64,000 nt of DNA from a virus, in the IMG/VR virus record IMGVR_UViG_3300027733_000030, positions 32,001 through 96,000 of that record; one strand, given 5' to 3'. Every line of letters starts with the position of its first letter. Positions within the stretch are counted from its first letter, which is position 1. The position numbers and the translations under genes are program-made. Below the pieces are notes generated by a model that was given only the letters and a program-made list of their open reading frames with translations, was not told the origin of the DNA and made no database searches. This document shows, piece by piece, positions 12,803-60,500 of this stretch.

Positions 12803-12803
12803 T

Positions 12804-13202
12804 TTAGTCCTTTTTGAATTCAGTGAATGTTTTGTCGCCTACGCCAAAGTATTCTCTAGCAAGACCAGACGCTATTATAGCATCATTTAGACACTCTCCG
12901 GCTTGATTCCATACTCTTGCTAGCACTCTTCCGTACTTTTCATTCTTGTCAATAATTGTTTCTATCTTAACTTTATGATTGGCGGCTGTTAACCACTGAT
13001 CAGTAAATTCTTTTGCAGCTAGACCCATTTTCTTTTCTTCAAGATTAGTTGTGCGACTCTCAGGAGTATTTACTCCATAAAGACGAACTCTACCTCTTTT
13101 TAGTGTATCGAATCCCAAATCGATAACAATATCAAATGTATCGCCATCAATTGTTTTCTTGACCTCTGCGTTGTAGATCCAAGGGTTTAGTTTATCTGTC
13201 AT
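12804..13202 (-). CDS. thermonuclease (staphylococcal nuclease family)
   Basis: IDGDT...RVRLYGVNTPE...KYGRVLA. Confidence 0.9.
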   Translation of the reverse strand: MTDKLNPWIYNAEVKKTIDGDTFDIVIDLGFDTLKRGRVRLYGVNTPESRTTNLEEKKMGLAAKEFTDQWLTAANHKVKIETIIDKNEKYGRVLARVWNQAGECLNDAIIASGLAREYFGVGDKTFTEFKKD

Positions 13203-13203
13203 G

Positions 13204-13995
13204 TTAATCTCTTTCTATTCCAATGTAGTCGCATGCTTTGCGAAATAATGCTTGACTTTCTTTAAATTTAGAATCTGCTTCTCCGCCGACAACTGAAGAT
13301 TTATGCCAACTGTGCCCGATGGATACACTTCCATCATACACCACATTGTAACCTAAGTGTCTGGCAAAGTATGAACACCAGGTTTCCTCATAATAATGAG
13401 GGGTAGGGAGAAATGCGCCTGTTACCCCTGGATACATCTCTTGATACTTGGGATGGTTTGTTAGTGCATTCCAAACTTCTCTACGGATAAAGTATGCGGA
13501 GCCTGAGACCGTAACGCATGGAACTCTATCTTTGTAAAGATGATCGTCAAAATCGCTTTGTCTCCAACCACGATGAGTTGGAGCTGTATTGGTTCCCACG
13601 ATTCCGGCGTGCGTTATCAATCCATTTTCGTCTCTTTGCTTGGGACCTAGAATATGAATATCTGGATTCTCATCAAAAATTTGTTGAGCTCTTACCATAG
13701 AACTACTAGTCATCCATACGTCAGCATTTAGTAGTGCAATCACGTCAGACGAGCCTTCAGCTGCCAATTGATTGCAAGCTCCAGAATATCCTATATTATC
13801 ATTGTGATAGAATTTATTAATTCTATATCTTTGATAATTGTATTTTAACCAACTAGCACTGTCGTCTTGCGAACCGTTGTCTGCTATATATAGATTCCAA
13901 ACCTTAGGAGTATCATGCAGATCACTGTGTAAGCAGTCTAGAAACCTATTCAGCAGTGGTCTTGTATTGTAATTAATTACGCATAGGTCTATCAA
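13204..13995 (-). CDS. family 2 glycosyltransferase
   Basis: VINYNT...IADNGSQD...NIGYSGACN...LLNAD...YYEET. Confidence 0.9.
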   Translation of the reverse strand: MIDLCVINYNTRPLLNRFLDCLHSDLHDTPKVWNLYIADNGSQDDSASWLKYNYQRYRINKFYHNDNIGYSGACNQLAAEGSSDVIALLNADVWMTSSSMVRAQQIFDENPDIHILGPKQRDENGLITHAGIVGTNTAPTHRGWRQSDFDDHLYKDRVPCVTVSGSAYFIRREVWNALTNHPKYQEMYPGVTGAFLPTPHYYEETWCSYFARHLGYNVVYDGSVSIGHSWHKSSVVGGEADSKFKESQALFRKACDYIGIERD

Positions 13996-41354: not shown

Positions 41355-42524
41355 TTAATAATTAGAGGATCCTATTATAACAGAATATATATTAACATTT
41401 CCAGCTGTAATATATTCTTTTATACTATTAGGTATAAAATCTTTTAATGGGAGTTCTCTTCCATCCGCAGTAAATGTATTAATAGTTACCCCTCTTATAA
41501 GATCAGAAGAAAGTTTTATTTGCTGTTCAATTTGCGATAATGAAATAGTATCACCAATAGTCATTGAATTTAAATACCGCTTAACGAATAAAGATGCTTG
41601 ATTGCGCACTCCATTAATAATAGAATCTGAATTTCCAGATGAAAGAGTCACAGTTGCCGACACACTAACGCTAATCTTTTCAGCAACTCTGACGTTAAAC
41701 CTAACTCCTACTGGCTTAACAGCACTGATTGCACTGAGAATGGCTTGGGGCAGAGCTTTAATGGCAGATGATACTTCTGGGACAACTATGATGTCACAAG
41801 AACCTATACCATAAGAGGCCTCACGTATTCTAACATCCTTAACGCCTTTTACAGAAAGGGCAGCAAAACGTACAGATTCAACTGTTCCTGGAGCCTTAGT
41901 CTTCATAGAGGCAAGGATTCTTCTGCGATAGTTGTCATCAGACTCTGAGGTAATATTTGAATAAATTTCTTTAGGGTTATTCGAATACACTACAACTGTT
42001 GGGGGAGCAATAAAATTGTGCTTAGTAAGTGAATTTTTAGGAGCTACATAAGAGTTATCGGAGAAATTAGGTTCAGCTCTACCGTAAGATCTGGTGGCTC
42101 CAGCCGGAATAGAGACTGTTGATGACAGTTTATAGCTATATTGTTTGCTAGTGAAATTAGATACGTCATTATATAGCAGTGTCCCTGCTGGTATAGTCAC
42201 ACCAGCACTATGGGGTTTATCAATAAAGAATTCGATATTAAAAGATTGTCTTTCTTCTGCTACAAAATTTGTTACAGATTTTCTTGAAACACCATATAGA
42301 TCACCAATTAAGTCAAGATTTCTGCCAGAAGCTGTGCTCAAATTACTTTGAGAAACTGTAAATCTAAAAGCTTCATAAAGATCAGATATTTCAGAACTTA
42401 CTGATTCTGCAAAAGCTCTGGCTATAGATCCTGGATATATGGCTGTAATGCCAGCATTTTTTTCAAGTCCATTCAGTATGGAGACTAGGATTTCTGATTT
42501 ATTTTTAACGCCGTAAACAGCCAT
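41355..42524 (-). CDS. baseplate J-like wedge protein (T4 gp6 / P2 gpJ family)
   Basis: GSIARAF...ASGRNLDLIG...ESDDNYRRRI...GTVESV. Confidence 0.88.
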   Translation of the reverse strand: MAVYGVKNKSEILVSILNGLEKNAGITAIYPGSIARAFAESVSSEISDLYEAFRFTVSQSNLSTASGRNLDLIGDLYGVSRKSVTNFVAEERQSFNIEFFIDKPHSAGVTIPAGTLLYNDVSNFTSKQYSYKLSSTVSIPAGATRSYGRAEPNFSDNSYVAPKNSLTKHNFIAPPTVVVYSNNPKEIYSNITSESDDNYRRRILASMKTKAPGTVESVRFAALSVKGVKDVRIREASYGIGSCDIIVVPEVSSAIKALPQAILSAISAVKPVGVRFNVRVAEKISVSVSATVTLSSGNSDSIINGVRNQASLFVKRYLNSMTIGDTISLSQIEQQIKLSSDLIRGVTINTFTADGRELPLKDFIPNSIKEYITAGNVNIYSVIIGSSNY

Positions 42525-42905: not shown

Positions 42906-43551
42906 TCATTTCCCTTAATGCTTTTAGGTGAGATTGATCAAAAGTAAGACCTTCTCTAATGTATTTTATCATTAGATCAATATGTTCTTTTGAATAATTC
43001 GAAGAATATGCTTCTAATAAGCCAATTTGTTCAAAAGTTAAATCAGATAAATTATCTTCTGAGGTATACGTCTGTTGAGGTATTATTTGCTGTTGGTTAA
43101 AACCATAGTCACCAGATATAGTAACGGTCTTTTGCTTTTCCTGATCTTCTAAATCGTTCATGCGGTCTAAATAATATGAAATTCCATTTTGTGCAGAATG
43201 AATGTTCTTATAATTTAATTTTACAAGTGTAGGCTCTGAATAATCAGATGATGAATAATTAAAATTATAGTTGTTCCACCTAAGCCCATCTTCCTTGCAA
43301 TGTAACCTAATTTCATCCCCAAATAATGAAATGCTTTTAGATCTACCGCTTATAACTATTCCAACTCCGGGAGAAGCAAAAATTTCTATATCACCTTGAT
43401 CATTTAATCTAATGAAACTAGCTAGATCGGGATGAGTTAATCCAACTTCTCTATCGGAAAACTCTCTTCTTTTTTGCATTTCTGCTTCAACTGGAAAATT
43501 GGCTTCTTGCCTTTTACCTTTTTTTAAAGCTTCATTATTTAAAATATCCAT
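42898..43551 (-). CDS. putative spike beta-helix-like baseplate protein
   Basis: VGLTHP...FIRLNDQGDIEIFA short-strand pattern; synteny. Confidence 0.45.
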   Translation of the reverse strand: MDILNNEALKKGKRQEANFPVEAEMQKRREFSDREVGLTHPDLASFIRLNDQGDIEIFASPGVGIVISGRSKSISLFGDEIRLHCKEDGLRWNNYNFNYSSSDYSEPTLVKLNYKNIHSAQNGISYYLDRMNDLEDQEKQKTVTISGDYGFNQQQIIPQQTYTSEDNLSDLTFEQIGLLEAYSSNYSKEHIDLMIKYIREGLTFDQSHLKALREMNE

Positions 43552-43919
43552 CAATGCACCATGAATCTGGGTATACCAGTATTGACTATAGAGTTTCTTA
43601 TATAAAATTTATTGCTAGTAACATCATCAAAATAATTAAGTACATATGGACTAGATTCATTGGTATCTCTAAAGCCCACTAAACAACGTGTTCCTACTGT
43701 TGGAGAAACGGATTGAACGCCTTTAACCATAGGGCACGGCACTGCTTTCAAAACATTACCCATACTATCGGAGTATTGTTCATCTAATATAATATCAGCT
43801 GTACTGTTGACCCTATCATAATTTACAATGATTCCAGGTCTTGTCCTGGATTTTTGCATAGCCGAATTGTCTATTTGATTTTGTATTTTTTTATCAAATT
43901 TTGGATAGTTAACTGGCAT
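43551..43919 (-). CDS. gp5/gpV N-terminal OB-fold-like baseplate spike component
   Basis: GIIVNYD...TADI...VPCP...PTVGTRCLVGF. Confidence 0.55.
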   Translation of the reverse strand: MPVNYPKFDKKIQNQIDNSAMQKSRTRPGIIVNYDRVNSTADIILDEQYSDSMGNVLKAVPCPMVKGVQSVSPTVGTRCLVGFRDTNESSPYVLNYFDDVTSNKFYIRNSIVNTGIPRFMVH

Positions 43920-43940: not shown

Positions 43941-46100
43941 TTAAAATATTGTTCCAGACATCCACTCTTGTATATGTGGAGCAGATTTAGATGTGGCACC
44001 GTTGTTCGGATTAGCAAAGTATTTTGTTACCCAAGCTTTTAAGTTATCTTCTGTTTTATTAGTATTTCTAGTATAGACCGCTACGGCATCAGACCATTTA
44101 ACTCCTGTAATTGGACCATATGCTGGTCCGCCATCATAGTCTCCCCAAGCAGTTAGCACGTGCTGCATCTCGGGATTAGAACCAAGTTTTTGATCAGCTG
44201 GAAGTGGATACACTGGATCTCTTCCTGTCATTGTTTTGAATGCCATAAAAGCTTGATTAATTGGTATCCACAATCTATCATCAGTTGAATTTCTCGTATT
44301 AGTTTTATATTCTGCAGTAGCCTCATTGGCCTCAGATACACTTATATCTCTAGCAAAACCTTTCCATTGACTAAATGAACTAAGGTTAAAGTATTGCCAT
44401 CCTGATGCAGCCAGTTTCCAACCTTCGATGGGAGTTACAGTTGGCAGGGGGCTGAGGAAAGAATAGTGCCCATATGATAGCAGGTTAAGCTGAAGGAAGC
44501 CAAATGAATAGTCTCCAGATCTACGAATGGTAGGAGTCCAAGAACCAACATTACCTTCTCTTTGTGAAATTGCAGTAAGTACTGCTGCCAATTCTGGATA
44601 AGCTATAGTTCCTGTAAGAAGTTGGAAAATTTCATCAGCGGTTAATTCTCCAGTCCCAGCTGCTTTATAACTTTTTGTAAATTTAGAATCAAGAATATTT
44701 CCTGGAATTGTAACTCCTGCTGGAACATAAAATAATCCTGAAGCTGGATTTCCCGAAGTTGTGGCGGGTGGCGCTATAGGGCCAGTAGTAAAAGCTCCTC
44801 CTGGTCCAGTATAGATTCCAGCTCTTGCTGCACTAAAACTTATATGGATATGATTTCTGTGCTTTGCATCGGGATGGAATTTTATATATTTTAAATTTGG
44901 ATACTTTAATTTTACTGCTGCATCGTCTGCATCGTGGCCTACTCTTACGCCATACTCAGCTGCCAACTCGGGCATGTGCACTATAATATCGGGCATGATA
45001 TGGATAGGTAGTGTGCTTAGTGCCGTCATTAGCACATCCATTGCTTTTCTATATATCTCTACATTTCCAGCATTATCCCATGGGGAGTATTTTTCTCCAT
45101 TTAAGTCACCAGTGAAGTAAATATCGTAAGCCCTACCAAATCCATGATCTGATAAAGATCCATCTTCTTTTGTTCCGGCCTGCATTTCTTCCCGCCATCT
45201 ACCGGTTCCAAAACCACCACCAATTTGTATCTTTGCAGCTAGCGCAATTAGACACTCAATTAGAGCTGGAGATACGTAGGCAAGTTGATTAGGGGCTTTA
45301 ACTATATCAATGGGAACATCTTTTATATTTGTTGCTGGATCTATGTTAGGGAATTCAGATATTCCATCGCCTGCGTAAGATTGTGTAAAGCTATCATTAA
45401 TGTCAAAATAAAATCCACCAGTTAAATTGCTCCAGTCATCGACTACTCCTAAATCTTTTAATACTTTTCCTCTTTCAAGAATCCATACCTTTTCCTCAGC
45501 GGAGACCCTGCTAGTTATAGCAACCATTCTTGCTCCTGCTGTAGGATTACTAGAGTCTGGATTATAGGGCGTGTCACCGTGATCTGCTGGTGAATCTGAA
45601 TTTGCTGGAGAATTAGCAAAAGAATAGTCTTCCATAATAGAATCTGCCGCACCTTGAACAAAACCAGAACCACCTTGTTTTGCAGCTATGCTGTCAGCTA
45701 GAATTCTCGTAAAGGCTGCTCCGCCTGATATTGTAGTAGGCTTTGATGCATCGCCATCAGTGTATGCTGTACTTTCAGGGTTAACAATTGTCACTTTCGC
45801 GGTTGAATTAAATGTTGATTCTGAACCCGCGGTAATTAAAGAATTTAAAGAACTTCCAATAGACTTATTATAAAATGTAGTAGCAAATTTTGGCGATCTA
45901 TATAATATATCTCCAGATATAGCTTCGGATATAGTCCTGCTAGTAAGAGTTTTTCCAGTTACACCGCTTTTGCCAAAAGAAGTATTTTCAACAACAATTT
46001 TTCCATTTGGATATTTTGTACTTTTTGGATAATAGCTATCAAAAATAGCATTTGTTATTGACTGAGAATTTGATATTTGTTCACTATTTATGTCTACCAT
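43941..46100 (-). CDS. tail-associated peptidoglycan hydrolase: M15-like Zn peptidase plus lysozyme-like/SLT domain
   Basis: SDHGFGRAYD...HRNHIHISF (H-x6-D...HxH); AISQREG...GDYSFGFLQLN. Confidence 0.75.
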   Translation of the reverse strand: MVDINSEQISNSQSITNAIFDSYYPKSTKYPNGKIVVENTSFGKSGVTGKTLTSRTISEAISGDILYRSPKFATTFYNKSIGSSLNSLITAGSESTFNSTAKVTIVNPESTAYTDGDASKPTTISGGAAFTRILADSIAAKQGGSGFVQGAADSIMEDYSFANSPANSDSPADHGDTPYNPDSSNPTAGARMVAITSRVSAEEKVWILERGKVLKDLGVVDDWSNLTGGFYFDINDSFTQSYAGDGISEFPNIDPATNIKDVPIDIVKAPNQLAYVSPALIECLIALAAKIQIGGGFGTGRWREEMQAGTKEDGSLSDHGFGRAYDIYFTGDLNGEKYSPWDNAGNVEIYRKAMDVLMTALSTLPIHIMPDIIVHMPELAAEYGVRVGHDADDAAVKLKYPNLKYIKFHPDAKHRNHIHISFSAARAGIYTGPGGAFTTGPIAPPATTSGNPASGLFYVPAGVTIPGNILDSKFTKSYKAAGTGELTADEIFQLLTGTIAYPELAAVLTAISQREGNVGSWTPTIRRSGDYSFGFLQLNLLSYGHYSFLSPLPTVTPIEGWKLAASGWQYFNLSSFSQWKGFARDISVSEANEATAEYKTNTRNSTDDRLWIPINQAFMAFKTMTGRDPVYPLPADQKLGSNPEMQHVLTAWGDYDGGPAYGPITGVKWSDAVAVYTRNTNKTEDNLKAWVTKYFANPNNGATSKSAPHIQEWMSGTIF

Positions 46101-46101
46101 A

Positions 46102-49100
46102 TTATCCTGGTGTTCCTACTTCTATAGGCATTGCTGCCGATTCACCCGCTGTGATTGTTGATTGAGATTCTTTCTGAAGATCTTTAACATAAACTCTAGC
46201 TAAATTATTAACTACTAATTCCCAGTTTAATGTATATGGGTGACCATTTTCAAAATACTCATCCCAACTGACTTGAGGCCATTCTGAAACTAGATTATAA
46301 ATTTCCTCTAAAATCTTCATGTAAACTAATATATTATATTTATTTATATTTTCTTGAGAAAGACCATATAAGGGATCTTGATCATCAAGATTATCAAAAT
46401 AATTTTCTTTTATAGTAGATTCTATATTGTTATATATTTCATTAAATTTTATTCTAAATGGCGATTGATCATACATATCATCTTGAACCTTAGATAGAAC
46501 TGTGTCTAAAGATCCTATGTTATCTCTGAATAAATTGTTAATATTTACTTTATGCTTACCTATATTTTCTTCAGGAAGATAATAAAATATTGTTCCAATT
46601 GTTCTTGAGAATTGATCCTTTACATAATTAGCGTCAATATTTTGAGATGCGCCTGCCTCGTAATCCTGTTCTAAGACTGCTGTTGTTCCAGTTCTGGTTG
46701 GATTAACTCTTAATACAAATATTTTATCCGTCAAAGCTTTAATCGTAAATAATTTAGCTTTACCACCAGGAGTGGAAACATCTAATAGACTTAAATTATC
46801 ATTTGCATTTATTGGATTAGTTGGAGTATCTGGATACCCAACTTTACCTTCCATGGTATTAATTTCGGAAGTGTTCATTCCATCAAAACGAACCTTAAAA
46901 GTAGCTCCGGATAATACATCTTCAACTTCAATTGTGTCACCGTCAACAAAGTGAATTACTTTACAAAGTATTTTGAATTGTGGTTCAAGTCCGGCTTTTT
47001 CTGGACCAAGTCCAGCTAATTTCAAAATTTTACCATGAACTAGTGCATTCTCATAACTAGTATATCTGACTAAATCTGTGATTTGACTTTCATTCCATCC
47101 AAGACTCTTGAATAAATCATCACTTCTGATGTATGCATTTCCTTCAGGTGTTCTGACTTTAGCTCTAACTCCAAGAATGCCTGGAAGTAGTGCTTTAGAA
47201 TGATATTTTCCTACAACCATTCCTTGATTATATGAAAGACCGGCATCCATTGGTTGACCATTTCTATTCAAATACTGCACATAGCATCCGTGTTGATCTA
47301 GTACCTTATCTCTAACCCAGCTCCAACCCTTCCATGCTAATTGGCCAACTAGTGGTCCTCCTATTGCTGCCCCAACAAGACCTGCAGGAGTAACTGCGCC
47401 CAATAGTGCACCGGCTGCCAATCCTCCCGCTAAGATTGCAAAACCCGGAGCTGCGCCCTGTCCTGTTGCTTGTCCCTGTTTTATTAGTTGATCTTTAACA
47501 TCTGGCATGCTTTGTGCAGTTTGATTAGCCATAACATCTTTAACTAACGCACTTGAGCCATGTGTAAATTGGAATCCACCTAATATTTGAGGAGAGAGCG
47601 CTTGGCCGAGAGCATCCATTGATATATTGCCGCCAACAGATATTCCAGAATTACCAGACTTAATTCTATCTAAATAGATTCTAGTATCGTTTCTAATCGT
47701 TTGAACATTCATCCAAGAATGGATCCAAGATGTCATGAACCATCTTGCGGGATCATTTACGGTAACTAAGGCATTTGGTGTTATGGAAGTAATGTAACCC
47801 AACTCTGCAGTAAAGTGATGTATTACCTGTTCTACTTCAAATATGCCATACATTCTTTCATAAACGTCGGCCAAATATATTAGATCGTGCGGTCTAATAT
47901 CTGAGTTTCCAATGACTATTAATTCTCCACCATATATGTCTTTGATAGATTCCTTAAGATGAGAGAGTGCAACTCTTCTTGCTGATAATTCATCTGGAAC
48001 TCCTTGGACGTTTTTTGCTACTCCTCTAAAAGTTTCCAATGGGTGCATTAGGGGGTGGAGGAATCCTGTAAATCCAGAACCAACCATATTGTCAAAGTAT
48101 ATTCCAGTTTCAACAGTTTTTTCTACTTGTCTTTCAGCGGGAGCGCCCTTATCTAGGGCAACCGTTACTGGGTATTTTCCGTCGGAAACTGCAGTTATTA
48201 CTGTAGCTACATTATTTATATTTTCTTGAATTTGATTAGATAGAATATGTGAGAAAGAACTTATGTAATGCAATCTTTGGAATGGTTCACGCACTTCCAT
48301 GACCGGTTCACCATATTCTCTAGTGAAAGGATTGTCTACAGCCCTAAGAAGTGTTCCTGGTCTGCCTAGCGAATAGTAAATAGAATCATTAAGTGCCTTA
48401 TTTAAAATGTTAGCTTGTTTTTTAAAATTACCTGCTTCAGAAAGCGCATATCCCATTTGTTGCATGGACAATTTAAACATTGACAAAAGACCAGTAAGTC
48501 CGTCAGATATAGCAGTAAAGATGGGTCCAATATTCGTATTCCAGAAATCATTGATTCCATCAACAACCTCACCAACAATATTAGTAGCACTATTGCCTTC
48601 ACCTCTAGTTGAAACTAATAGTTGTCTAAATTTATCTTGCTTACCTGGCTTAGCATAATCATTATATGGGTCGATAAATGCTCTAAATATTTTATCTACT
48701 GGTTTAAAACTCCATTGATCTTTTCCAGTTTTCTTTCTATCTGGCTTTAGAACTAACCAAGCTCTGGCATATGGATCTTCCCACATTCTCTGACGGAAAA
48801 TTCCAACCATTAAAAGGAATAATTGTTTTGGTGTTTTAATTTTTTTAACTAGTTCAGCTGTAAGAGTTGGACTTTCTGAATCGGAAGATAGACTGAACAT
48901 CAATGTATTGCTAAGTTTTGTGTTTTTTTCACTTAGGAAATTGTCATGGATTGCCCCTAGAGATTTAACGACAACCGCATTAAAGTAATCTATTAATCCA
49001 CCTTGATCAATACTTGCATCAATATAATTCTGCCTGGCAAATTCAATCGCTGCCTTATAGCTTTCATCACTAAAGGTGTCGGCGCTTGATGAATTAGTTT

Positions 49101-52100
49101 CATCGTTTACTGTATTAAGATTGGATGTAAAATCTGAACCTAAAAGTACTGCAAATTCATCTACTGCGCCTACTGTGCCACCTATAGAATTATTGAAGTG
49201 AGCTATGGGTGTATAGCCTGCATAATTAGATCCAGTAAGTATATTCTTATAAAAATCTGGAAATTCATTTTCGTTATCTGGATCTAAACTAAATGTGTCA
49301 AAAAATATTTTTTTAACACTCTCATACGTATGATAACCAAACCTAAATTGATCCCAAATATCTTCTGCCATTCTTAATGTTCTTCCATCGCCAGCAATGA
49401 CTGATACTGACGCATCAAAATTTTCGTCATAGTATGATCTAGCTTCAACACTAATTAAATCTAAAGGAGAATATACTTCAGCAAATGAAACTCTTCCAGA
49501 GCCTGTAGAGTTATCTGGCCCTGTTGTAGTTAATTCATCATCTAGTATTTGATAAAGATTATCTCTTCCCAGGGAACTGTAATCTGCATCTATTACAGCT
49601 TGAAAATATGTTTTTTGATCTCCCTCATTTATGACATTAAGCGGATTGCCGCCATATTGCAAGCCTTCAACGTTAGAAACTAATGAAGTGTCAATAGGAC
49701 TAAACCGAGTTAGCGAATTATTAAACGCATTAGAAATAGCACTTGTCCCAAAACCAAAATCTACGACAGGCGCGCTGGGGTCGATGAATGCTGACCCTGT
49801 TGCATAATTTGTAGAGCCTTCTTTTGGTTTGAACGATCCAAACCCAATGACTTGCCCCATTTCAGAGTCAATAATTTCACCAGTTTGATTTTTTAAGGAA
49901 AAGTTAACTGCTGGAGCAATAGATGAAGACACTACGCCAACTGGAGTTTCATCTGGCACAAAAGCCATATAGCATTCTTGCATAATTGGATAGGGTCTGA
50001 ATCCAGAATTTCTCCAGTTATTCATGTTTTTTATTCCATCATCTGTACCAGTAGCAGCAGAGACATCCATGTTTTCTTCATTAGAATTTCGTGTGATTAT
50101 ACTCAAGTAATAAGCTGCGTCCGGTGACACTACTGCGCTAGACAATTGGGACTGTTCATCATTGGTACTAATTGTTTTTTCATTACCCCATAAGAAATAT
50201 GCTGGACGACAAACTACTGCCCTTTTATTGTTTGGATTATAAACTAAAACTTTTCTAGACTTATAGTCTTTTACTGTTCCGTATAAATCTTCAAAGCCAT
50301 AATTAGATTTAAATTGACTAATAGTGTCTTCATCTGCTCCAATTTTACTTGTTTCACTTTGTGAGACTGGATGATATGGCCATTTCATAGCTATATAAAA
50401 TTGTTCATCTTCAGCTGTTGCCGGGGAGCCCCATTCTTGGTAGGTTAATTCTCCGTAGTTACCCTTTTGATATTCAAAAGAAAAATTATCATCAACATTA
50501 TTTGCAGCTATATTTCCTTCAGCGTTCCTTGACCCTAGCCCACTCATTCTAGGTAAGGGCATTTTAATTACTTTATAGTCTGGCATAAGGTTTAGCGCAT
50601 CAAAATTAAGCTGTGCTAGATTTAATGGACTATCAAGATTGATAGTATCGTCAGATGGAATAAGTGTTAATTTTGATTGTTCAAAGAAAATATACTCTAA
50701 ACTTTGAAGTTTTAATAAATTATTATAATAATCCTTATTACCTTCAGTGATGTGATCACCATCGCTATCATTCATAAACTGCTTAATATCTACAGCAATA
50801 TCTATAAAAGATGAATTAATAAGTTGATCTGAAGGAAGATCTTCATTAGCGGTAAAATATGGAAAACTGAATCTTGGGGGTAAATTCCCCAGTTGTTGAT
50901 GTTTACTCTCTTGATTAGGTCGACTGTCTTGCGTCCCACCGTTGGGGACTCCATATGGCAAGTGGAGGCCGACATTAACATAACCTTTAGAAACTGGTAA
51001 TTTAGCTAATATTTTAGTAGGAGCCGCTGGATCATAATACGTTGAAGATGGTTGCGCATAAAAGTTAATTACTTTTCCTACTACACTGGATGTCGGTGCG
51101 TATATACCACTTGAGGTTAACATGGATTGTGACATATCTTGAAATGTTTGACTTGGTTCAGAAGCTTGAAAGAATGCCGCGTAGTCAGCTAAAGGATTAG
51201 TATCTTTATTGATTTTATCTAAGATAGAAATTAAATCTTGATCAGGATTTTTCATTTGTGGTGCAATAATACCTAATTCTTCTGCTTTTTCTTGCCCAGG
51301 AAAACCAGTAGTAATTGGCACTACGCCAGATGTATATAGCCAATGTGGCTTACCGTAAAAAACTGTTGATCTATCCTCAAATGGTCTAACTGCAACGATA
51401 TAGTTTGGCAATAGTCTTGCGCACATTTCAAATAAATCCCAAACAGTTCTCATATAAGTTTGAGCTCTAAATGAAACCTCATCAAAACCGGGTAGGTCAT
51501 CATCTGAATTAGGCGATATAATTCCTAACGTTCTAAATAAATTTGTGCCACCTCTACCACGTATAACGCCAAGCAGTCCTGCACCTGCTACCGCCCCAAC
51601 ACCCATGCCGCCTAAAGCAGCGGCTCCAGCGGTTATTCCTCCGGCAAATAGGCCCTTAACTAATCCAGCTCTTCCATCTGAATTGACAAGTTGATTATCT
51701 TGCGTTAAGAAATCTAATGTATTATTACCACCGGTGTCCGATAACCCATAGTTCTCCATTTGACTAGATTCAATTAATTTATTCCAACTACTATCAGTTA
51801 ATCTACCCAGGTAACCATCCGTCCTGTCGTTATAGCTATCTTCTTTGACCAGAGAAGATGCTGTGGACCAACCGTCATCCAAGTCCCCCCCAAGGAATTG
51901 AGCTATACCTGTCCCGTTGCCTGGATAAATATTTCTTTTGAATATTTCAAGATCAACTTGGGCACAGAAATTGGAGAATAATTGACCAACCGCAGAGAGA
52001 GAATTTCCTCTATAATTTAGACTGAAACCTTCAGTTATGCCAACTGCTTTATTCATGAAACTATTATTGCTACCCGCAATACTAAATGCTCCAGTAATAC

Positions 52101-55100
52101 TATCTCTAATAGCATCATTCTTAGCTTGCTCACCAGTAGTTAATGGCTCATAAAGAATATTTCCAAAATGTCTAATACCAAATCTATTTTCTGAAAATAC
52201 TGTACCCCTTGTTGCGTGTGCTAAAGCTTCTCGAGTTCTGGATGCACCCATAGATAGAAGTCTAACCATTAAGTCTCTGGGTTCAGACATGTACATTCCA
52301 GTATCTACGCCGCCATCAATTTTTCCACTATCGCCTTTTTTATTTGTTGAATTCATTACAGCACCTAATTCAATTGCATCAGATTGAGCTGTAATTGTAA
52401 CTATTTCACCTTGTTCAATATTTGTAATAACTCCATTAAATATTGTTTGCAGTGAATTTGGATTAGAGCCATATCCTGATCTTAGGTGAACTCTTACTCC
52501 CGGCTTTAGTCTTATATTAGCAATGTCGACAATATATTCGTTCCTCATATGGCCAAGAATATTTCTTGACATATTTAATGTTCTATCAATAATAGAGCTT
52601 ATTCCCTCAGTCAAGGATAATGAATCATTGGAGTTATCGTCTAGATTAGGATTAAATATTTTACTTGATTCATTTTTTGTCAGCTTGCTATAAAGATTTG
52701 AAACTCTAAATATTAATGTATCGCCCAATAGATCTTCTGAGCTTACTACTGAAAAATCTATGATTGATTGTAATCCGTAAAAATTATCAAATAATTTAAC
52801 ACCGGCAAACATTCCACCTTCATCTATTAACCATAACATATAGGTTGGGAATGCTCTAATCATTCTTCCTGATATATCTCTATATGATGAATCAACCATC
52901 ATAGTTTCCCAATGTGACTGCATGTCTCCATTGTATGAATTCTGGTATTCAGAAATAGCTTTTGCACCTGGGACTCCAGTGTTAACTGTTGTATTTCCAG
53001 TTTCAGGAGTTTGAACATCTTTTAAGTAATTAGTCTGAAGTTTTATAACACCTGAATTTGTTCCATCATTTTCATTGTTAACTTTTTTGATATTATCTCC
53101 TCCAGCAGTGAGATAGAATCTTCCATTGGATCTGACTTGGTATCCAAAATGCGTACCTGCTGCGGTTTGTAAAATAGATGGTATTTTACCTTCCATAACA
53201 TCTTTTGGATCGGATGCGGGTATTGCAAAAATTTGTTTATGAAAATCAACTTCATCAGGATCAAAGCTAACGTATTCTTCATTTGGTAGACTGAAAGCTC
53301 CAGTTATAGCAGCTTCTATGGATGTTGCATTAGATGCACTATTGGGGGATAAATCACCTTGTTGAAAAGGAGCTGCAATAACATCTTCGAAATAGGGATT
53401 TATTTCACTAGTTTCTTCTGCAAAAGTGATAAAGTCTGTTAGTAATTGCACATTTGCAGAATTACTGAACTCGGTATCTCCAGTAACTACGTTTCTAAAT
53501 ATATGTATAAATCTAGATAATCCAATTTGATTTGCAATTATATAATCTTTTATTTGATTAACAATTTCTTCAGTGGTTGTTTCATCTGCAGAATTATTAT
53601 ATAAAGTAATAAATTCTAAAATTTTTGCAGTGATACCAAGTACATCATAACCTTCTCCGCCAACTCCACCGGCTCCGTTTGAATGCGTATCAAAATTATA
53701 ATCTTGAATCTTCTGATGCTGGGTACTAAAACTATTAACAACGTCTTTATCAAACATTTCAAAACTTCTAAAATAAAAATCTGGATCTAGATGCCCTACA
53801 ACATCGCCACCAGAATTTTTCACACTCAAAGGAAAATCTGGATAAGAATTAAACGTTCCCCAGAATTGTTTAATTCTTAAAAATGGATTCTTTTTAGTAC
53901 TAAATTGATCTATTAGTTCTTTCTGTTGCGTGCTGCTAAGTTCTTCACGTTTTTGCTGAAATATATCAAAGTCTATTAAACTTAATTGAACATCATACGC
54001 GTGCGGGTAATTGGGTATTGTGCTAACACTGTAATTTAGTGGGAGGACATATTTAATACCGCACAAGGCAGTAATGATATTTTTAATACCCAAAAAACCA
54101 ATGACTCCAGTGGCGTGTTCTAATCTAGCTAATCCAGAAATATGATCAAATACATTTTTTAGTTTGATTAATTCTTTTTCGCCAATAACAGTCATTGATA
54201 TATTGATATTGCTATCTCTACCACCAATATGTTGATACGTTGGTTCATCTTGCATCTGAATTTGAAGTTTAGCAAGACTATTTCCCATGGAAACAGTTAC
54301 TCCATTAACTATAACGGATTGTGGATCTAAGTCGACTTGTATCATGGGCACTTCCCATTCTTTAAATTGGAACGCCCCAGCTCTTTCTCGGGCAGCCTCC
54401 ATTAAAGATTGAATTGGTCCACTCTTAAAGAACCTTTCATACAAGGTTGCACTAAATGCTTGTGCTAACTCTTTTCGAACCTTTGCATCAACAGCTGCTC
54501 TTGTATCATCTGTTATTTCATCTGCGGGGATTCCAATTTTATCTAATTTCTCTTTAGTCATTCCTTCTCTTAAATAGTCTAAATAAGATGAAGGATTTTC
54601 TGAAATTCTTTCCAAAGAAGTTCTTACAGCATTTAGTGATGTTTTTTCTAAGTATTTACCCTGAAAAATATAAGTAGCTTCTTCTGGATACAATAAAGAA
54701 TATGAATTATAACCATTCTTCAACCACTCTTGTTGTGCTGAAGTAACATTCTTGTTTTCTGCAATGAATGAGGCCACAAAATAGGCATAGGCTTGCTCTG
54801 CCATATTGTCAGAATTAATACCTGCCGTCAATATATTTACTGAGTCTTTGACAATATCTTTTGTTGCTTTGGAGAATGAACTTGAAAGTGATATGTCTTG
54901 GACTTCTTGTAGAGATACTCCATATGAAGTGCTTTGATTGATATCTATGCCTATACTAGACAATAAAGATTCCCATGTACCTTGGCCTAAATCTGTGTAC
55001 ATCTTTTCTTGTTTAGTTCTAAATGAAGATGTATCTGGTAAAAATATTTTTGTTTGGGTTTCCGCTGGGGCAAATAGGGATATATTATTTCCATTACGCC

Positions 55101-57090
55101 ATTCTGATATTACATTTATATTAATTGCACTATCAAATGCTCCAGATTGAGGAATCGTAGGAGTAGGCTCTGGTTGGGCATTGGGGTCTACAATCCCTAT
55201 TCCAAAACCAAAATCTATTCCTGTTTTTACAGTATTGTCTGCTTCTTTTACATCAGATTTTTTTAGTAAAAATTCTTCGTTGACATAATCATGCAGATGC
55301 CCTGCCGCTTTACCCATATATTGACGATACTTACCCCAGTGTATTGCTTGATTAAAATCTTTAATCATTGGAAGAAATGGTTGATGATTAAAATTCAAAA
55401 GTTCAAGATCAACCGCTAGGGCGAATGGATAATTAGGAATAGTGGAAACGGTCATGCTAGAAAGTGCTACTGCAGTTATTCCATGAACAACATTTAAGTA
55501 ATGATTCTTAATAGGAAGAAACGGAGAATATTTAAATGCTGCGACTAGTCCTCTCAGTGAAGAAAGAAATTTATCTATTTTTATTTCTGAATCTCCACCA
55601 TTTTTAAAGTCAATTTTAAATGTATCATTTAAATCTATTTGAGAAGCATTGTCTATTGACAATCCCCAAATTTCTTCATAGTTTGGAAAGAATAATCTCA
55701 TCCTAACACTAGTCTCTTTATAGCCAGAATTAAATTTTGGACTATTCTTTTGTCTAATTGCTGCTCCAGTAAGACTGCCAGTCTTGAAAGATGAATTAAC
55801 ATCTATTGATATAGGTGGAACATAAAAATTAGATGCACCTAATCTTAAGTGAAATATATCTGGAACGTTGGGAGCAATATTTGCTCTAAATGGAGAAGTC
55901 TCAAGAACATTTTTAATACGTTGTGATGTATTTGTAAATTTGTAAGCCATTTCAAAAATGGCTTTACCTTCTCTAGTTATACCAAAAGCTTTTTCTAGTG
56001 ACCTGGCAAAATCTTCAGGATTATTTAAAGTATCTTCTTCTCCGCCACCTTTGCCATTGTTAGAATAATCTCCAACTACTGCTAGTGCATCAACTAGGAA
56101 CGTTGTTAAGCTTGGAAAATAATAGGCAATTGACGCAAAAGCTAAAGGATCTTTTTTTAATTGCTGTACAGCTTCAGTCAATGAGATTAACCATGGCAGA
56201 TCTACTTCTGGGTTGATTACATTATCCGCAGAAGCTTTTAGGGTATCTTTACTTCTTAACCTTTTCTTAGCAAATTCAGATATTTCGTAAGCGTATGACG
56301 CTAAATTTAAAAGTCCTATGTCTTCCATTTTGCTAAATAGCATTGAGGAATTCGTGTCACTTAAATCTTTTATTGATTCACTAATTTTAGAAAATACTCG
56401 AAAATAAGATGTAGATGTATTAGTAGAATCTCTATTTCCAAAACCCGCACTCAATAATGCATCCCTGGGGTCATCTATATTAGGGCGAGCTTTAGATACA
56501 AAATTAAGAAAATCTAAATAGACTTGATCTTCCGGATTACTATCTTCTAACTTTTTTTCATCTTCAGAAGATTTAATCTGTTCAATGTTAGCTATTTCAG
56601 CTAGAACTGTATCATCAATATTTCTTCCATTTGCAGTAGTATTCCATAGCTGTAATCTGGCTAGTACCTTGCCCGCTAAAAGCTTTGTAATATTAGGGTA
56701 ATAACCTGTATAAGCGTACGTTGTAATAAAGTGATAAATTACATCGCTTTCGCTCTGCAGATATGGGTTAGCAATGTTGGTCGCATTTTGAACATAAGTA
56801 TTATACTCATCTATAATAATTGCTGTCTGTGAAGGAATTCCAACTATAAAAGTAGAAACAGCTATCCTATAGGCAACTAGCGCGTAGCTATCGCTTTCGC
56901 CATACTCAAGAAGATCTTTACCCTTATATTCATATTGGGCCAAACCACCTGGTGAACCATCATTAAAAAATCGAAATAATTCATCAGGACTAGTGCTTGG
57001 GTTGGATAATAATTGCGTTACCTGTTCATATAGGGCGGGATGTTCAACAACGTACTTTAGTACATTTTTAGATATTGTATTAATAGCCAT
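46102..57090 (-). CDS. 3662-aa multidomain baseplate hub (gp27/gpD-like) with C-terminal thermonuclease domain
   Basis: LKPGVRVHLRSGYGS...IFNGVI and ELIVIGNSDIRPHD...GIFEVEQVIHHF hub motifs; C-terminal VDGDT...VRFDGMNTSE...DQFSRTIG. Confidence 0.75.
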   Translation of the reverse strand: MAINTISKNVLKYVVEHPALYEQVTQLLSNPSTSPDELFRFFNDGSPGGLAQYEYKGKDLLEYGESDSYALVAYRIAVSTFIVGIPSQTAIIIDEYNTYVQNATNIANPYLQSESDVIYHFITTYAYTGYYPNITKLLAGKVLARLQLWNTTANGRNIDDTVLAEIANIEQIKSSEDEKKLEDSNPEDQVYLDFLNFVSKARPNIDDPRDALLSAGFGNRDSTNTSTSYFRVFSKISESIKDLSDTNSSMLFSKMEDIGLLNLASYAYEISEFAKKRLRSKDTLKASADNVINPEVDLPWLISLTEAVQQLKKDPLAFASIAYYFPSLTTFLVDALAVVGDYSNNGKGGGEEDTLNNPEDFARSLEKAFGITREGKAIFEMAYKFTNTSQRIKNVLETSPFRANIAPNVPDIFHLRLGASNFYVPPISIDVNSSFKTGSLTGAAIRQKNSPKFNSGYKETSVRMRLFFPNYEEIWGLSIDNASQIDLNDTFKIDFKNGGDSEIKIDKFLSSLRGLVAAFKYSPFLPIKNHYLNVVHGITAVALSSMTVSTIPNYPFALAVDLELLNFNHQPFLPMIKDFNQAIHWGKYRQYMGKAAGHLHDYVNEEFLLKKSDVKEADNTVKTGIDFGFGIGIVDPNAQPEPTPTIPQSGAFDSAININVISEWRNGNNISLFAPAETQTKIFLPDTSSFRTKQEKMYTDLGQGTWESLLSSIGIDINQSTSYGVSLQEVQDISLSSSFSKATKDIVKDSVNILTAGINSDNMAEQAYAYFVASFIAENKNVTSAQQEWLKNGYNSYSLLYPEEATYIFQGKYLEKTSLNAVRTSLERISENPSSYLDYLREGMTKEKLDKIGIPADEITDDTRAAVDAKVRKELAQAFSATLYERFFKSGPIQSLMEAARERAGAFQFKEWEVPMIQVDLDPQSVIVNGVTVSMGNSLAKLQIQMQDEPTYQHIGGRDSNINISMTVIGEKELIKLKNVFDHISGLARLEHATGVIGFLGIKNIITALCGIKYVLPLNYSVSTIPNYPHAYDVQLSLIDFDIFQQKREELSSTQQKELIDQFSTKKNPFLRIKQFWGTFNSYPDFPLSVKNSGGDVVGHLDPDFYFRSFEMFDKDVVNSFSTQHQKIQDYNFDTHSNGAGGVGGEGYDVLGITAKILEFITLYNNSADETTTEEIVNQIKDYIIANQIGLSRFIHIFRNVVTGDTEFSNSANVQLLTDFITFAEETSEINPYFEDVIAAPFQQGDLSPNSASNATSIEAAITGAFSLPNEEYVSFDPDEVDFHKQIFAIPASDPKDVMEGKIPSILQTAAGTHFGYQVRSNGRFYLTAGGDNIKKVNNENDGTNSGVIKLQTNYLKDVQTPETGNTTVNTGVPGAKAISEYQNSYNGDMQSHWETMMVDSSYRDISGRMIRAFPTYMLWLIDEGGMFAGVKLFDNFYGLQSIIDFSVVSSEDLLGDTLIFRVSNLYSKLTKNESSKIFNPNLDDNSNDSLSLTEGISSIIDRTLNMSRNILGHMRNEYIVDIANIRLKPGVRVHLRSGYGSNPNSLQTIFNGVITNIEQGEIVTITAQSDAIELGAVMNSTNKKGDSGKIDGGVDTGMYMSEPRDLMVRLLSMGASRTREALAHATRGTVFSENRFGIRHFGNILYEPLTTGEQAKNDAIRDSITGAFSIAGSNNSFMNKAVGITEGFSLNYRGNSLSAVGQLFSNFCAQVDLEIFKRNIYPGNGTGIAQFLGGDLDDGWSTASSLVKEDSYNDRTDGYLGRLTDSSWNKLIESSQMENYGLSDTGGNNTLDFLTQDNQLVNSDGRAGLVKGLFAGGITAGAAALGGMGVGAVAGAGLLGVIRGRGGTNLFRTLGIISPNSDDDLPGFDEVSFRAQTYMRTVWDLFEMCARLLPNYIVAVRPFEDRSTVFYGKPHWLYTSGVVPITTGFPGQEKAEELGIIAPQMKNPDQDLISILDKINKDTNPLADYAAFFQASEPSQTFQDMSQSMLTSSGIYAPTSSVVGKVINFYAQPSSTYYDPAAPTKILAKLPVSKGYVNVGLHLPYGVPNGGTQDSRPNQESKHQQLGNLPPRFSFPYFTANEDLPSDQLINSSFIDIAVDIKQFMNDSDGDHITEGNKDYYNNLLKLQSLEYIFFEQSKLTLIPSDDTINLDSPLNLAQLNFDALNLMPDYKVIKMPLPRMSGLGSRNAEGNIAANNVDDNFSFEYQKGNYGELTYQEWGSPATAEDEQFYIAMKWPYHPVSQSETSKIGADEDTISQFKSNYGFEDLYGTVKDYKSRKVLVYNPNNKRAVVCRPAYFLWGNEKTISTNDEQSQLSSAVVSPDAAYYLSIITRNSNEENMDVSAATGTDDGIKNMNNWRNSGFRPYPIMQECYMAFVPDETPVGVVSSSIAPAVNFSLKNQTGEIIDSEMGQVIGFGSFKPKEGSTNYATGSAFIDPSAPVVDFGFGTSAISNAFNNSLTRFSPIDTSLVSNVEGLQYGGNPLNVINEGDQKTYFQAVIDADYSSLGRDNLYQILDDELTTTGPDNSTGSGRVSFAEVYSPLDLISVEARSYYDENFDASVSVIAGDGRTLRMAEDIWDQFRFGYHTYESVKKIFFDTFSLDPDNENEFPDFYKNILTGSNYAGYTPIAHFNNSIGGTVGAVDEFAVLLGSDFTSNLNTVNDETNSSSADTFSDESYKAAIEFARQNYIDASIDQGGLIDYFNAVVVKSLGAIHDNFLSEKNTKLSNTLMFSLSSDSESPTLTAELVKKIKTPKQLFLLMVGIFRQRMWEDPYARAWLVLKPDRKKTGKDQWSFKPVDKIFRAFIDPYNDYAKPGKQDKFRQLLVSTRGEGNSATNIVGEVVDGINDFWNTNIGPIFTAISDGLTGLLSMFKLSMQQMGYALSEAGNFKKQANILNKALNDSIYYSLGRPGTLLRAVDNPFTREYGEPVMEVREPFQRLHYISSFSHILSNQIQENINNVATVITAVSDGKYPVTVALDKGAPAERQVEKTVETGIYFDNMVGSGFTGFLHPLMHPLETFRGVAKNVQGVPDELSARRVALSHLKESIKDIYGGELIVIGNSDIRPHDLIYLADVYERMYGIFEVEQVIHHFTAELGYITSITPNALVTVNDPARWFMTSWIHSWMNVQTIRNDTRIYLDRIKSGNSGISVGGNISMDALGQALSPQILGGFQFTHGSSALVKDVMANQTAQSMPDVKDQLIKQGQATGQGAAPGFAILAGGLAAGALLGAVTPAGLVGAAIGGPLVGQLAWKGWSWVRDKVLDQHGCYVQYLNRNGQPMDAGLSYNQGMVVGKYHSKALLPGILGVRAKVRTPEGNAYIRSDDLFKSLGWNESQITDLVRYTSYENALVHGKILKLAGLGPEKAGLEPQFKILCKVIHFVDGDTIEVEDVLSGATFKVRFDGMNTSEINTMEGKVGYPDTPTNPINANDNLSLLDVSTPGGKAKLFTIKALTDKIFVLRVNPTRTGTTAVLEQDYEAGASQNIDANYVKDQFSRTIGTIFYYLPEENIGKHKVNINNLFRDNIGSLDTVLSKVQDDMYDQSPFRIKFNEIYNNIESTIKENYFDNLDDQDPLYGLSQENINKYNILVYMKILEEIYNLVSEWPQVSWDEYFENGHPYTLNWELVVNNLARVYVKDLQKESQSTITAGESAAMPIEVGTPG

Positions 57091-57554: not shown

Positions 57555-60500
57555 TTAATAGTTGGCTGCCATTTCTTTGTATGGATCATGAGCCACATCG
57601 GGGATTCTATTATACATAGTAGTACTCATATTGCCATTAACCAACCCTCCGGCAGCAGCATTAAATCTTCTTACGGTGTCTTGATCTCCATATAGGTTTA
57701 CTTTATAGCTAACCCCTGAATCATAACCGGGACCACTAAAGGTTCCTATTTGTGGTACTCTATTTGGGTAACCACTCTCGTATGCCGAACCGCCAGGAAG
57801 TAAAGGGGGACCAGTCATATCATCATGTGTTCTATCTCTAATCGCTGTATAGGCTAAGCTGCCTGCTATTAAAGCTCCAATTGCTAAGGTACCTTTTCTA
57901 ATAGTCGGATTTTTAAAGAGATCTTTAAGATCTCCCATTTTTTCCCCTATTCTCTTATATACAGCCTTATTCTTTACGAGTCCATCATCTAATTCACGAA
58001 CAGACCTAATCATATCATCCGTTAGACCATGATCATCTCCGAATTCTCGTATAGCATCTTCCATGTTGGCAATGGTGCCGTTTTTCATTTCCGTATCTAT
58101 AAATCCACTATCTTCTAATTCTCTCTTCTTCATTTGAGCTCTTATTACGGCAGCTTGGTGGTTTGCATCTTTTCTGACCATTTCATCAGCAATTTGTTCA
58201 GACTCATTTGTTAAAGCCCTAAGAGTATCAGTATGTTCGTGGCTTGCAGCTATTACATCAAACATATTTTTTGATCCATTATCCACTCTTTTTTGAGCTT
58301 CATTAATAGCTTTTAATCTTTTTTCAGCTTCTTGAGTAAGTTCTTCCATAGTAGTTTTATTGCCCAAGCTACCTTGAACTTCATTAGCATAGTCTTGATG
58401 AAAACCTTCATAAAATTTTGCTCTTCTATAATCTCTTACTCGTTGAATCTGTGATGCTGTTTGTTGAGCTTCATCTGACATTGTTGAATCGTATGCTGAA
58501 CTTAAGTGCCTAAGGCCACCGATATCTACCCTGGAACCTACTCCGCGGGTTTGTTTATCTATAGAGTTTACAAGATCTGCCATGTTAACATTTTCAAGTT
58601 TTGATGCTTGACCAATGTCACGTAATACTTTTTCTCCAACACTATCCAACATAGCTGCGTGGTTATGTTTTTCGAGTTCAGTCATCTCCTTAAGATGATT
58701 ATTTGTAACATTAAAAATTTGTTCTAAAGAATCTTTATGAGTTTCAAGAATTTTTCGCGCAACTGATTCAGCTTCAGCGGATGTTGAAGTTGAAGCTAGA
58801 ATGTCATCTGCGCCAATACGAGATATTGAAGCCCTTCTTACTGAATCTAAATACGCTTCATATCTAGTTCCTACGTCATGTATTTTTGAAATAGATGAAT
58901 ATTTATGATCGGCGCCTAGACCAATTTTTTCTATTAAAGCTTTTTTTATTTTATCTTCATCATTAGTAGCAGAAAGGGCTTTTAGTTCTTCTATAAGTTT
59001 ATCTAAATCAACTGTTGTTGCGTGTTGATTCCTTTGTGCGTCTTGCATGCCTGTAATCATATTATCTAGAATTAATTTAGTATCACTACCTTTAACTCTT
59101 TCCCTTAATAAGAATTCATCTATACCTAAAAGATTTTCTTGATCCCCCCCCACTGCTCTAGAATAACCAATCATTTTGCCAAGGTTAGCCATACTTTTTT
59201 CTCCAAAAATATCAAGAGTAATACCTTTGTCCCCAGCGCCAGCAAGTCCCAGTTCTCCTAATGCTTTTTGAATGCCTTGATCTTTATAAAATATAGCATC
59301 TGTTTTAGATAACATTTCCCCAACTGCCCCATGCAGTTTTCTTGTTCCAGCAAAGTTTACAGAAAGGTCAATTGCTGTTTCCTGTGATAGCATTCCTATT
59401 TTATAATTTTGAAGCATGTAGTCTTGGACTTTTTTATCTGCGCCCTTTAAAAAAGCTTCATATTGATTTAATGATGAACCTACGGCCATAGATCTGTTCA
59501 CATATAGACCAAGTATATCTCCACCCTCTATTGCCTTTTTCATACCGACTTGTTCAAATGCAGATGCAAAAGCTGCCCTTAATGTAGGATCTTTTTCAAA
59601 TCCGTTAACTTCCATTAAATGCATCATGTGTTCAAATTGACTTAATTGTCTTTGTTTTCCTTCAACAAAATAAGTGCCTGCTTTAGCAGTTTCTAATTGC
59701 TTTAAAACTGCTGGATTAACGTTATTCTGCTTCATTACATCCAACAGGTCACTTCCCATATCAAAAGCGCCAGATTTAGTAAATGCTTTGAATACACCAT
59801 TCCTTGTATATGCTGGTTCTACACCTATATCCGCAACTGTTAAAGCCGAAGATCCATATTTAGCTATTCTTGCTTGCATATCTGGAGTTAGTCTTTGAAG
59901 TTTTGTTTTTCCGGTCTGTTCAAGTCTTTGATATACATCATAAATTCCTTGTTCAAAATAATCTGCAGAAAGTGGTTTTTCAACTACTTTTCCTTTTTTG
60001 ATTTCTGTATGTGTTTTATCTAATACTTCTTGCAAATAAGTATATGTTCTTCTTTTTTGGGCATTAAGTGATGTGTCGGCTGCTAGTTCGTCTAGCGCAT
60101 TTCTAAAATGTCTTACTGCAAATACATCTTCTCCGCCACCAAACAAACCTCTAATAGTTTCTTGATCCATATTCATTCGAGCAAAAATTAATTCTTCAGG
60201 ACCTGATGGTTGACGGAAAATTGAAAATCCTAAACGATTCATTCCCGCATTATCTTGATACGTCAATAGCTTAGGTAGACCTTTGTCGTCTAAGTCAAAT
60301 CCACCAAGTGCATGTCTATAAGGTCCAATGGCATCAGCCGAAAACATCATCTTGTGGCCACTAACTCTGAATTTTAGGATATCATGATCGATATCTCCTA
60401 CTCCAGCCATAGATATTCTGTCATAACCTCTGCCTTTATTGAGTAACATTTTTCCTTCTTTTGTTCCCAAAACTCCAGCTTCACTGTCAATAGCAAACCG

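Follow-up and report, generated by a model that had tools for sequence, protein, structure and literature searches.

The window analysed here is the 64,000-nucleotide stretch at positions 32,001 to 96,000 of IMG/VR virus record IMGVR_UViG_3300027733_000030. It contains an open reading frame (ORF) at 46102..57090, on the minus strand like every feature described below, that begins with ATG, has zero internal stops and encodes a protein of 3662 amino acids (aa). Sequence comparison identifies this protein as the central baseplate hub, of the type represented by gp147 of phage 0305phi8-36, of an uncultured contractile-tailed jumbo phage, and structural modelling assigns its C-terminal ~270 residues to a divergent staphylococcal nuclease (SNase) fold. 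The source record is 126 kb long and rated ~60% complete, which implies a phage genome of ~200 kb. The explanation that we favour, with modest assurance, is that the hub SNase is still a metal-dependent phosphodiesterase or nuclease, borne by the virion at its tail tip and acting outside the cytoplasm.

The assignment as a baseplate hub is based on several lines of evidence. PHROG 20474 matches the protein at E 5e-120, and BLASTP against gp147 of 0305phi8-36 returned five blocks in the same order in both proteins (residues 413-573, 913-1068, 1398-1643, 1869-1917 and 2932-3113). The third of these, hub core block A (52162..52899), is 28% identical to gp147 840-1063 (E 2e-24) and was also matched by tblastn in hubs of Bacillus and Moorella jumbo phages. 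Block B (residues 1869-1917, 51340..51486) is 36% identical to gp147 1120-1169 and close to invariant across the hub family. Block C (residues 2932-3113, 47752..48297) is 27% identical to gp147 1191-1415 (E 6e-17) and was found by tblastn in the hubs of vB_AbaM_ME3 (ME3), Edson, WH1, KLEB27-3, MTATph1 and 0305phi8-36. The remaining three blocks have E-values of 2e-15, 1e-10 and 2e-6. These six jumbo phages, which infect Bacillus (0305phi8-36, Edson, WH1 and KLEB27-3), Moorella (MTATph1) and Acinetobacter (ME3), were the sole cultured-phage relatives detected by tblastn. Pfam gave no significant family of any kind for the whole protein, four pieces of it or 15 C-terminal fragments, and megablast of the hub gene against phages gave zero matches.

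Blocks B and C are ~20 aa apart in gp147 and ~1000 aa apart here, the difference being an insert in the hub core (residues 1918-2931, 48298..51339) that is absent from gp147. The insert is 930-1200 aa long in all close homologues and 600-820 aa long in a distant subfamily of 2400-3200-aa hubs, and it had no match in Pfam, PDB or ESM Atlas. The original prediction, made from the letters alone, had proposed hub motifs of the T4 gp27/P2 gpD type interrupted by an insertion of about this size, and the collinearity with gp147 bears this out. The gp27/gpD link itself rests on the earlier placement of gp147 in that family by profile methods (Hardies, Thomas and Serwer 2007, Virol J 4:97, PMC2147016); a search of PDB sequences with a profile of the present family found nothing meaningful. 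The local gene order agrees with this assignment. Downstream of the hub are a 122-aa gpV-like spike gene (43551..43919), similar to 0305phi8-36 gp148, which is P2 gpV-like (E 5e-5), and a Baseplate J-like wedge protein (41355..42524; PF04865 E 5e-15, phrog_6 E 2e-39), and the order hub, gpV-like, gpJ-like is that of 0305phi8-36.

The hub belongs to a large family. A search of a large protein collection with the hub protein returned more than 350 clusters at E 0.001 or better, the best 120 of which are 3300-4100 aa long each and 46-79% identical to it. These 120 were drawn from assemblies of JGI, ENA, Logan and NCBI, and the contigs that carry them reach ~210 kb; the identical 3662-aa protein is present on four contigs. 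The original prediction had allowed that the fusion might be an assembly error. Since the architecture is kept in more than 350 clusters from independent assemblies, that origin is ruled out. A BFVD entry from an uncultured phage, named "Baseplate hub protein", also belongs to the family (34% identity, E 6e-26). Matches in genome collections were to metagenome-assembled genome bins labelled Cyclobacteriaceae, Saccharibacteria and Iamiaceae, which are probably binned phage contigs, and one matching protein is labelled Flavobacterium sp.; these labels give a weak hint of a Bacteroidota host. One homologue, P0062 (3208 aa), carries an intein (Hint/Intein_splicing and LAGLIDADG) at residues ~2534-2945.

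We modelled the last 332 residues of the hub with AlphaFold (AF2), and the core of the model has a predicted local distance difference test score (pLDDT) above 85. All of the top 50 PDB matches to this model in Foldseek were staphylococcal nuclease (E 6e-4). VIA aligned the model with SNase at Z 11.7-12.1, a root-mean-square deviation of 2.2-3.2 Å and 22-25% identity, over 104-110 of ~130 residues. The alignments span residues ~3370-3641 (46168..46983) and put D3383, D3385, R3401, E3409 and R3496 at the positions of D19, D21, R35, E43 and R87 of SNase. The original prediction had named this domain and these five equivalents, and both are upheld by the model; it made no mention of the calcium ligand D40, the position of which is occupied by N3406. 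Two features interrupt the fold. A disordered loop of ~25 aa follows the E43 equivalent, and a helical insert of ~100 aa (residues ~3505-3600, 46291..46578; helices at model positions 177-273) follows the R87 strand. This insert lies outside the SNase alignments and is absent from distant relatives.

A phmmer search for this domain among 1.8 billion representatives recovered 65 relatives, each a giant hub or a fragment of one. In phages, tblastn with the last 532 aa found no match, and ESM Atlas had no usable match for the C-terminal 543 aa. The same phage genome also encodes a stand-alone SNase of 132 aa (12804..13202; PF00565 E 4e-14), and we compared the two families with hhalign. An alignment of 126 hub C-termini matched an alignment of 48 distinct stand-alone SNase sequences with 92% probability (E 5e-7), with the DGDT motif, R35, position 40, E43 and R87 aligned between them. 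Significance was reached only with these 126- and 48-sequence profiles; when a 15-sequence hub alignment was compared with just the one stand-alone SNase, the match was not significant. The stand-alone protein reads N-T-P-E and thus likewise has Asn at the D40 position. Because the phage's own Pfam-grade SNase has Asn there, the Asn of the hub is, on this sequence comparison, a natural variant of the phage's SNases and by itself no sign of decay. The N-terminal SNases of the Edson and KLEB27-3 hubs (residues ~150-270) have Gln at this position (V-Q-A-P-E and T-Q-T-P-E), and therefore an amide at the D40 site recurs in the hub-borne SNases examined. The stand-alone gene is far more conserved than the hub (84-99% identity across the best 80 of 228 IMG/VR contigs). 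Its region (11989-13995) also encodes a pyrimidine-dimer DNA glycosylase (PF03013), a nucleoside 2-deoxyribosyltransferase-like protein and a GT2 glycosyltransferase.

To judge whether the hub domain still functions as an enzyme, we counted its catalytic residues in 126 full-length hub homologues. The D, D, R, E, R set is intact together in 80 of the 126; position 40 is N in 62 and D in 17 of these 80, and N in 68, I in 21, D in 19 and L in 9 of the full set. On a tree constructed from the neighbouring hub region, there are only ~9 switches between the intact and the degenerate state. The catalytic columns are among the most conserved 20-30% of the domain, and the distant 2400-3200-aa hubs have compact SNase domains with near-canonical motifs such as RFLGIDTPE. 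Weighing this pattern against the contrary observations that follow, we consider it somewhat more likely than not that the domain is catalytically active in this phage.

Besides N3406 at the calcium-ligand position, several observations weigh against activity or against the virion location. Several catalytic residues are lost, with the domain kept, in 46 of the 126 homologues (37%), and strict invariance is limited to a block outside the catalytic set, WP...WDEY..DG.P..NWE. With a net charge of -8 and an isoelectric point of 4.7, both equal to the family median, the SNase core is acidic; classical SNase is strongly basic. PF00565 gave no match even at E 10 for the hub, its pieces or 14 homologue fragments, and neither phmmer nor profile searches with this domain retrieved anything meaningful from PDB sequences. 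The record of gp147 lacks a mass-spectrometry note, unlike those of its neighbours, and no nucleic acid that could serve as a substrate is known from the periplasm or the tail tip.

The association of an SNase with a hub of this type has been noted before. Hardies et al. (2007, PMC2147016) reported an N-terminal SNase domain in the BtI1 homologue of gp147 and found it "not obvious why" a hub should carry a nuclease; they suggested that hub enzyme domains occupy the site of the T4 tail lysozyme and that such domains are copied from stand-alone genes of the same genome. This was the only paper that our search of the literature on virion-associated nucleases and nuclease domains on tail hubs recovered. 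Among the cultured relatives, the Edson hub GAKEdson_0910 (2319 aa) matches PF00565 at residues 175-264 (E 9e-6), and the KLEB27-3 hub has, as judged by eye, an SNase motif like that of Edson, with no Pfam match. The ME3 hub ME3_37 (KU935715, 2329 aa) matches PF00565 at 1126-1241 (E 5e-14), with a Peptidase_M23 domain immediately after it, and gp147 itself carries NlpC/P60 and M23 domains. SNase domains are therefore found at three positions in one hub family: C-terminal in the present protein, N-terminal in Edson and (by motif) KLEB27-3, and internal in ME3. This pattern suggests separate fusion events and favours the view that the activity is under selection at the tail tip. The original prediction knew of no characterised phage example; as regards characterisation this holds, but a hub-SNase association as such is known from BtI1 (2007), Edson and ME3.

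Two domains in the N-terminal part of the hub each end in VSTIPNYP; the motif lies at residues 547-554 (55429-55452) in one and at 1022-1029 (54004-54027) in the other. Aligned with each other (~416-568 with ~903-1040), the domains show 30% identity (E 2e-8), and they correspond to the first two blocks shared with gp147: tube-like domain 1 (residues 413-573, 55372..55854) matches gp147 260-398, and tube-like domain 2 (residues 913-1068, 53887..54354) matches gp147 491-654. An AlphaFold model of residues 400-1060, computed from a 27-sequence alignment, has a mean pLDDT of 69. Foldseek E-values for this model were weak (0.014 and above), and nearly all the matches were baseplate chains. With VIA, the best matches were the HFTV1 tail (9fkb_BA; Z 13.6, 246 aa aligned) and the tail tubes of T5 (9iny_A; Z 11.4, 236 aa aligned) and P74-26 (8ed0_A; Z 10.0). 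These tandem tube matches cover both repeats (model residues 12-649). At lower scores (Z 8-9.5) came single-domain matches to chains from the baseplates and tail tips of many phages, of pyocins and of contractile injection systems. The region separating the two domains, ~340 aa, is mainly helical in the model but includes a few short strands, and confidence is low in two parts of it. The model thus gives the VSTIPNYP repeats a tube-like fold in tandem form, and the proposal of the original prediction that they are tube-initiator-like is substantiated at the level of fold; the domain-wise AlphaFold modelling that it had suggested recovered both this pair and the SNase fold. In the T5 and P74-26 tail tubes, three tandem chains form a ring with six-fold-like symmetry. 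The tandem fold therefore implies that three copies of the present protein could do the same, and by this analogy the hub would be a trimer with its N-terminal part supplying the ring that starts the tube. The ~410 residues before the first tube-like domain (55861..57090) have no Pfam match and no gp147 match.

Two Gly/Ala-rich hydrophobic segments, predicted originally as glycine zippers, were confirmed by hydropathy. Segment 1 (residues 1808-1844, 51559..51669; 60% Gly+Ala) and segment 2 (residues 3212-3249, 47344..47457; 57-60% Gly+Ala) both have a Kyte-Doolittle peak of 1.83. Glycine-zipper channel proteins and the membrane-inserting parts of T5 pb3 and pb2 provide analogues, and membrane insertion of the segments is plausible on that basis. 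At the same hydrophobicity threshold, neither the Bacillus-phage hubs nor the distant aquatic SNase-bearing relatives have such segments, and we therefore consider them a trait of the subfamily that is not tied to the nuclease. Segment 2 is followed by a linker (residues 3250-3369, 46984..47343; motif LDQHGCY.QYLN..G.PMDAGL) with near-invariant columns and a conservation that exceeds that of the nuclease domain. It is retained even in the distant 2400-3200-aa hubs. Residues 3331-3369, the only part of it that was modelled, gave a low-confidence prediction.

Together, these features suggest how a hub-borne SNase might work. One chain unites the tube-like pair, the hub core split by its insert, a Gly/Ala segment, the linker and the C-terminal SNase-fold domain. 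In our proposal, for which we infer the trimer, the presence of the domain in the virion, its catalytic activity, its place and time of action and its substrate, three tube-like pairs would form the six-fold-like ring from which the tube starts, by analogy with T5 pb6. The SNase module would occupy the chamber that holds wall hydrolases in relatives (NlpC/P60 and M23 in gp147; M23 beside an SNase in ME3) and would be exposed only after sheath contraction. It would then act in the envelope during tail penetration, where calcium is available, and would be idle during assembly in the low-calcium cytoplasm. Such calcium control would keep the enzyme harmless to the producing cell and could explain why there is no apparent immunity gene. 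The more specific claim, that an active hub SNase is carried into the host envelope by the contracting tail and serves as a tail-tip nuclease or phosphodiesterase effector, is one that we put forward only tentatively.

An alternative is that the domain is a pseudo-enzyme, an SNase/OB (oligonucleotide/oligosaccharide-binding) fold retained as a structural plug, as a module on which the spike or tape measure docks, or as a DNA-binding module that does not cut, so that catalysis would be irrelevant. The last of these can be compared with protein N of phage Mu, which attaches to either end of the DNA that is injected. Retention of the domain after loss of the catalytic set in 37% of homologues is what this alternative would lead one to expect, as are the invariant residues in the non-catalytic C-terminal block and in the preceding linker, the acidic core, the large helical insert and the failure to match Pfam. 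But the five catalytic residues are kept across deep divergence, including in the near-canonical 2400-3200-aa subfamily, the losses are limited to a few clades, and Pfam accepts the SNase fusions at other positions in the hub family as genuine SNase. The acidic surface, moreover, speaks against the pure DNA-binding form. We regard a pseudo-enzyme as a serious but rather unlikely explanation.

Two further alternatives accept an active nuclease and move it elsewhere. If the hub worked in the style of an evolved VgrG, the zippers would enter membranes and the nuclease would reach the cytoplasm along with the tape measure, there to degrade host or competing DNA early in infection. The two Gly/Ala segments, one of them directly upstream of the nuclease, would suit such an injected effector, and the location of the Asn-type stand-alone SNase among DNA-metabolism genes suggests that this type of SNase may work in the cytoplasm. 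However, SNase-type enzymes need calcium far above the cytoplasmic level, the domain is covalently part of the hub with no cleavage site known, and its surface is acidic. The zippers, as noted, are absent from the Bacillus-phage hubs and the distant SNase-bearing aquatic relatives, and the ME3 SNase adjoins a cell-wall peptidase, which points to the envelope. Injection into the cytoplasm is thus improbable in our estimation. Least credible to us, and very unlikely, is that free virions display the nuclease and use it before adsorption to digest the extracellular DNA of a biofilm or particle matrix; the original prediction had named clearance of extracellular DNA among its options. Extracellular calcium would permit the activity, but the hub is buried in the baseplate centre, known depolymerases sit on fibres or spikes, and the domain is located where relatives have wall hydrolases that act only after contraction.

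The question is of interest because cell-wall hydrolases are a known component of phage tail tips, and a nuclease at that site has no explained role. The hub family is very large and abundant, with its more than 350 clusters and with 228 IMG/VR contigs that carry a linked stand-alone SNase gene, and the catalytic set of the hub SNase is conserved across deep divergence. Together, the present hub and those of Edson, KLEB27-3 and ME3 have the SNase at three positions, and the cultured phages among them make the question testable. If the tail-tip effector claim is correct, these hubs would mark a widespread, uncharacterised step of infection by jumbo phages, signposted by the acquisition of SNases at three positions in one hub family; destruction of nucleic acid or of another phosphodiester-linked polymer at the envelope, or blocking of the DNA of competing phages, would be examples of such a step. 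Apart from the nuclease, the presence of a tube-like ring and a hub in one 3662-aa chain is an extreme consolidation of baseplate parts into a single protein.

Two neighbouring genes complete the local context. Just downstream of the hub, a 719-aa ORF (43941-46100) contains the motif S-x-H-x-x-G-x-A-x-D (45123-45152, minus strand). By this LAS/M15-type peptidoglycan peptidase motif alone, its product may be the missing tail lysin; it had no significant similarity to the LT-like protein beside the KLEB27-3 hub and no Pfam or PDB match. Upstream of the hub, a 1605-aa protein (57555-62372, minus strand), with no Pfam or PHROG family, ends in a lone hydrophobic helix, IRKGTLAIGALIAGSLAYTAI.

Among known systems, the closest is 0305phi8-36 gp147. 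The two proteins have the five collinear blocks in common, the pair of tube-like domains and the hub core of gp27 type among them, and both are encoded between a large upstream tail gene (annotated as the tape measure in 0305phi8-36) and a gpV-like spike. Like gp147 and its prophage-like homologues in BtI1 and BwK1, the present protein is an oversized hub decorated with an enzyme domain. In contrast to gp147, it is approximately twice as long, contains the ~1000-aa core insert and has no recognisable peptidoglycan hydrolase. Its SNase is C-terminal, whereas that of BtI1 is N-terminal, and it differs from the Bacillus hubs in that the SNase is broken by the ~100-aa helical insert and preceded by a Gly/Ala segment that they lack. 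The hubs of ME3 and Edson have a homologous core (block C, E 7e-10 and 4e-19, respectively) and also bear an SNase, but theirs are compact, pass Pfam and are located internally beside M23 (ME3) or N-terminally (Edson), in proteins of ~2300 aa. T5 pb6, the P74-26 tail tube and the HFTV1 tail likewise have two tube-fold domains per chain; in the present protein the pair makes up a single module of a hub, with its domains ~340 aa apart, and would form one ring rather than a tube. With staphylococcal nuclease (PF00565) the domain shares the fold, DGDT, R35, E43, R87 and a near match to D-x-[FY]-G-R-x-L-G-x-I-F, and it differs in falling below Pfam thresholds, in having Asn for D40, in its loop and helical insert, in its acidity and in being part of a 3662-aa structural protein.

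The original prediction also drew a parallel with the specialised spikes of type VI secretion systems (T6SS) and extracellular contractile injection systems (eCIS). The evolved VgrG and eCIS spikes are likewise gp27-lineage proteins of an injection tip with a C-terminal enzyme extension. VgrG is a fusion of gp27 and gp5, whereas the present chain has neither a gp5-like OB domain nor a beta-helix needle; the gpV-like spike is a separate gene, and only ~100 aa separate the last hub block from the zipper. The parallel therefore stands only as an analogy, and any delivery into a target cell would be hypothetical. With its C-terminal, insert-bearing SNase preceded by a zipper, on a hub of double length, the protein described here is a new architecture of the kind noted in 2007.

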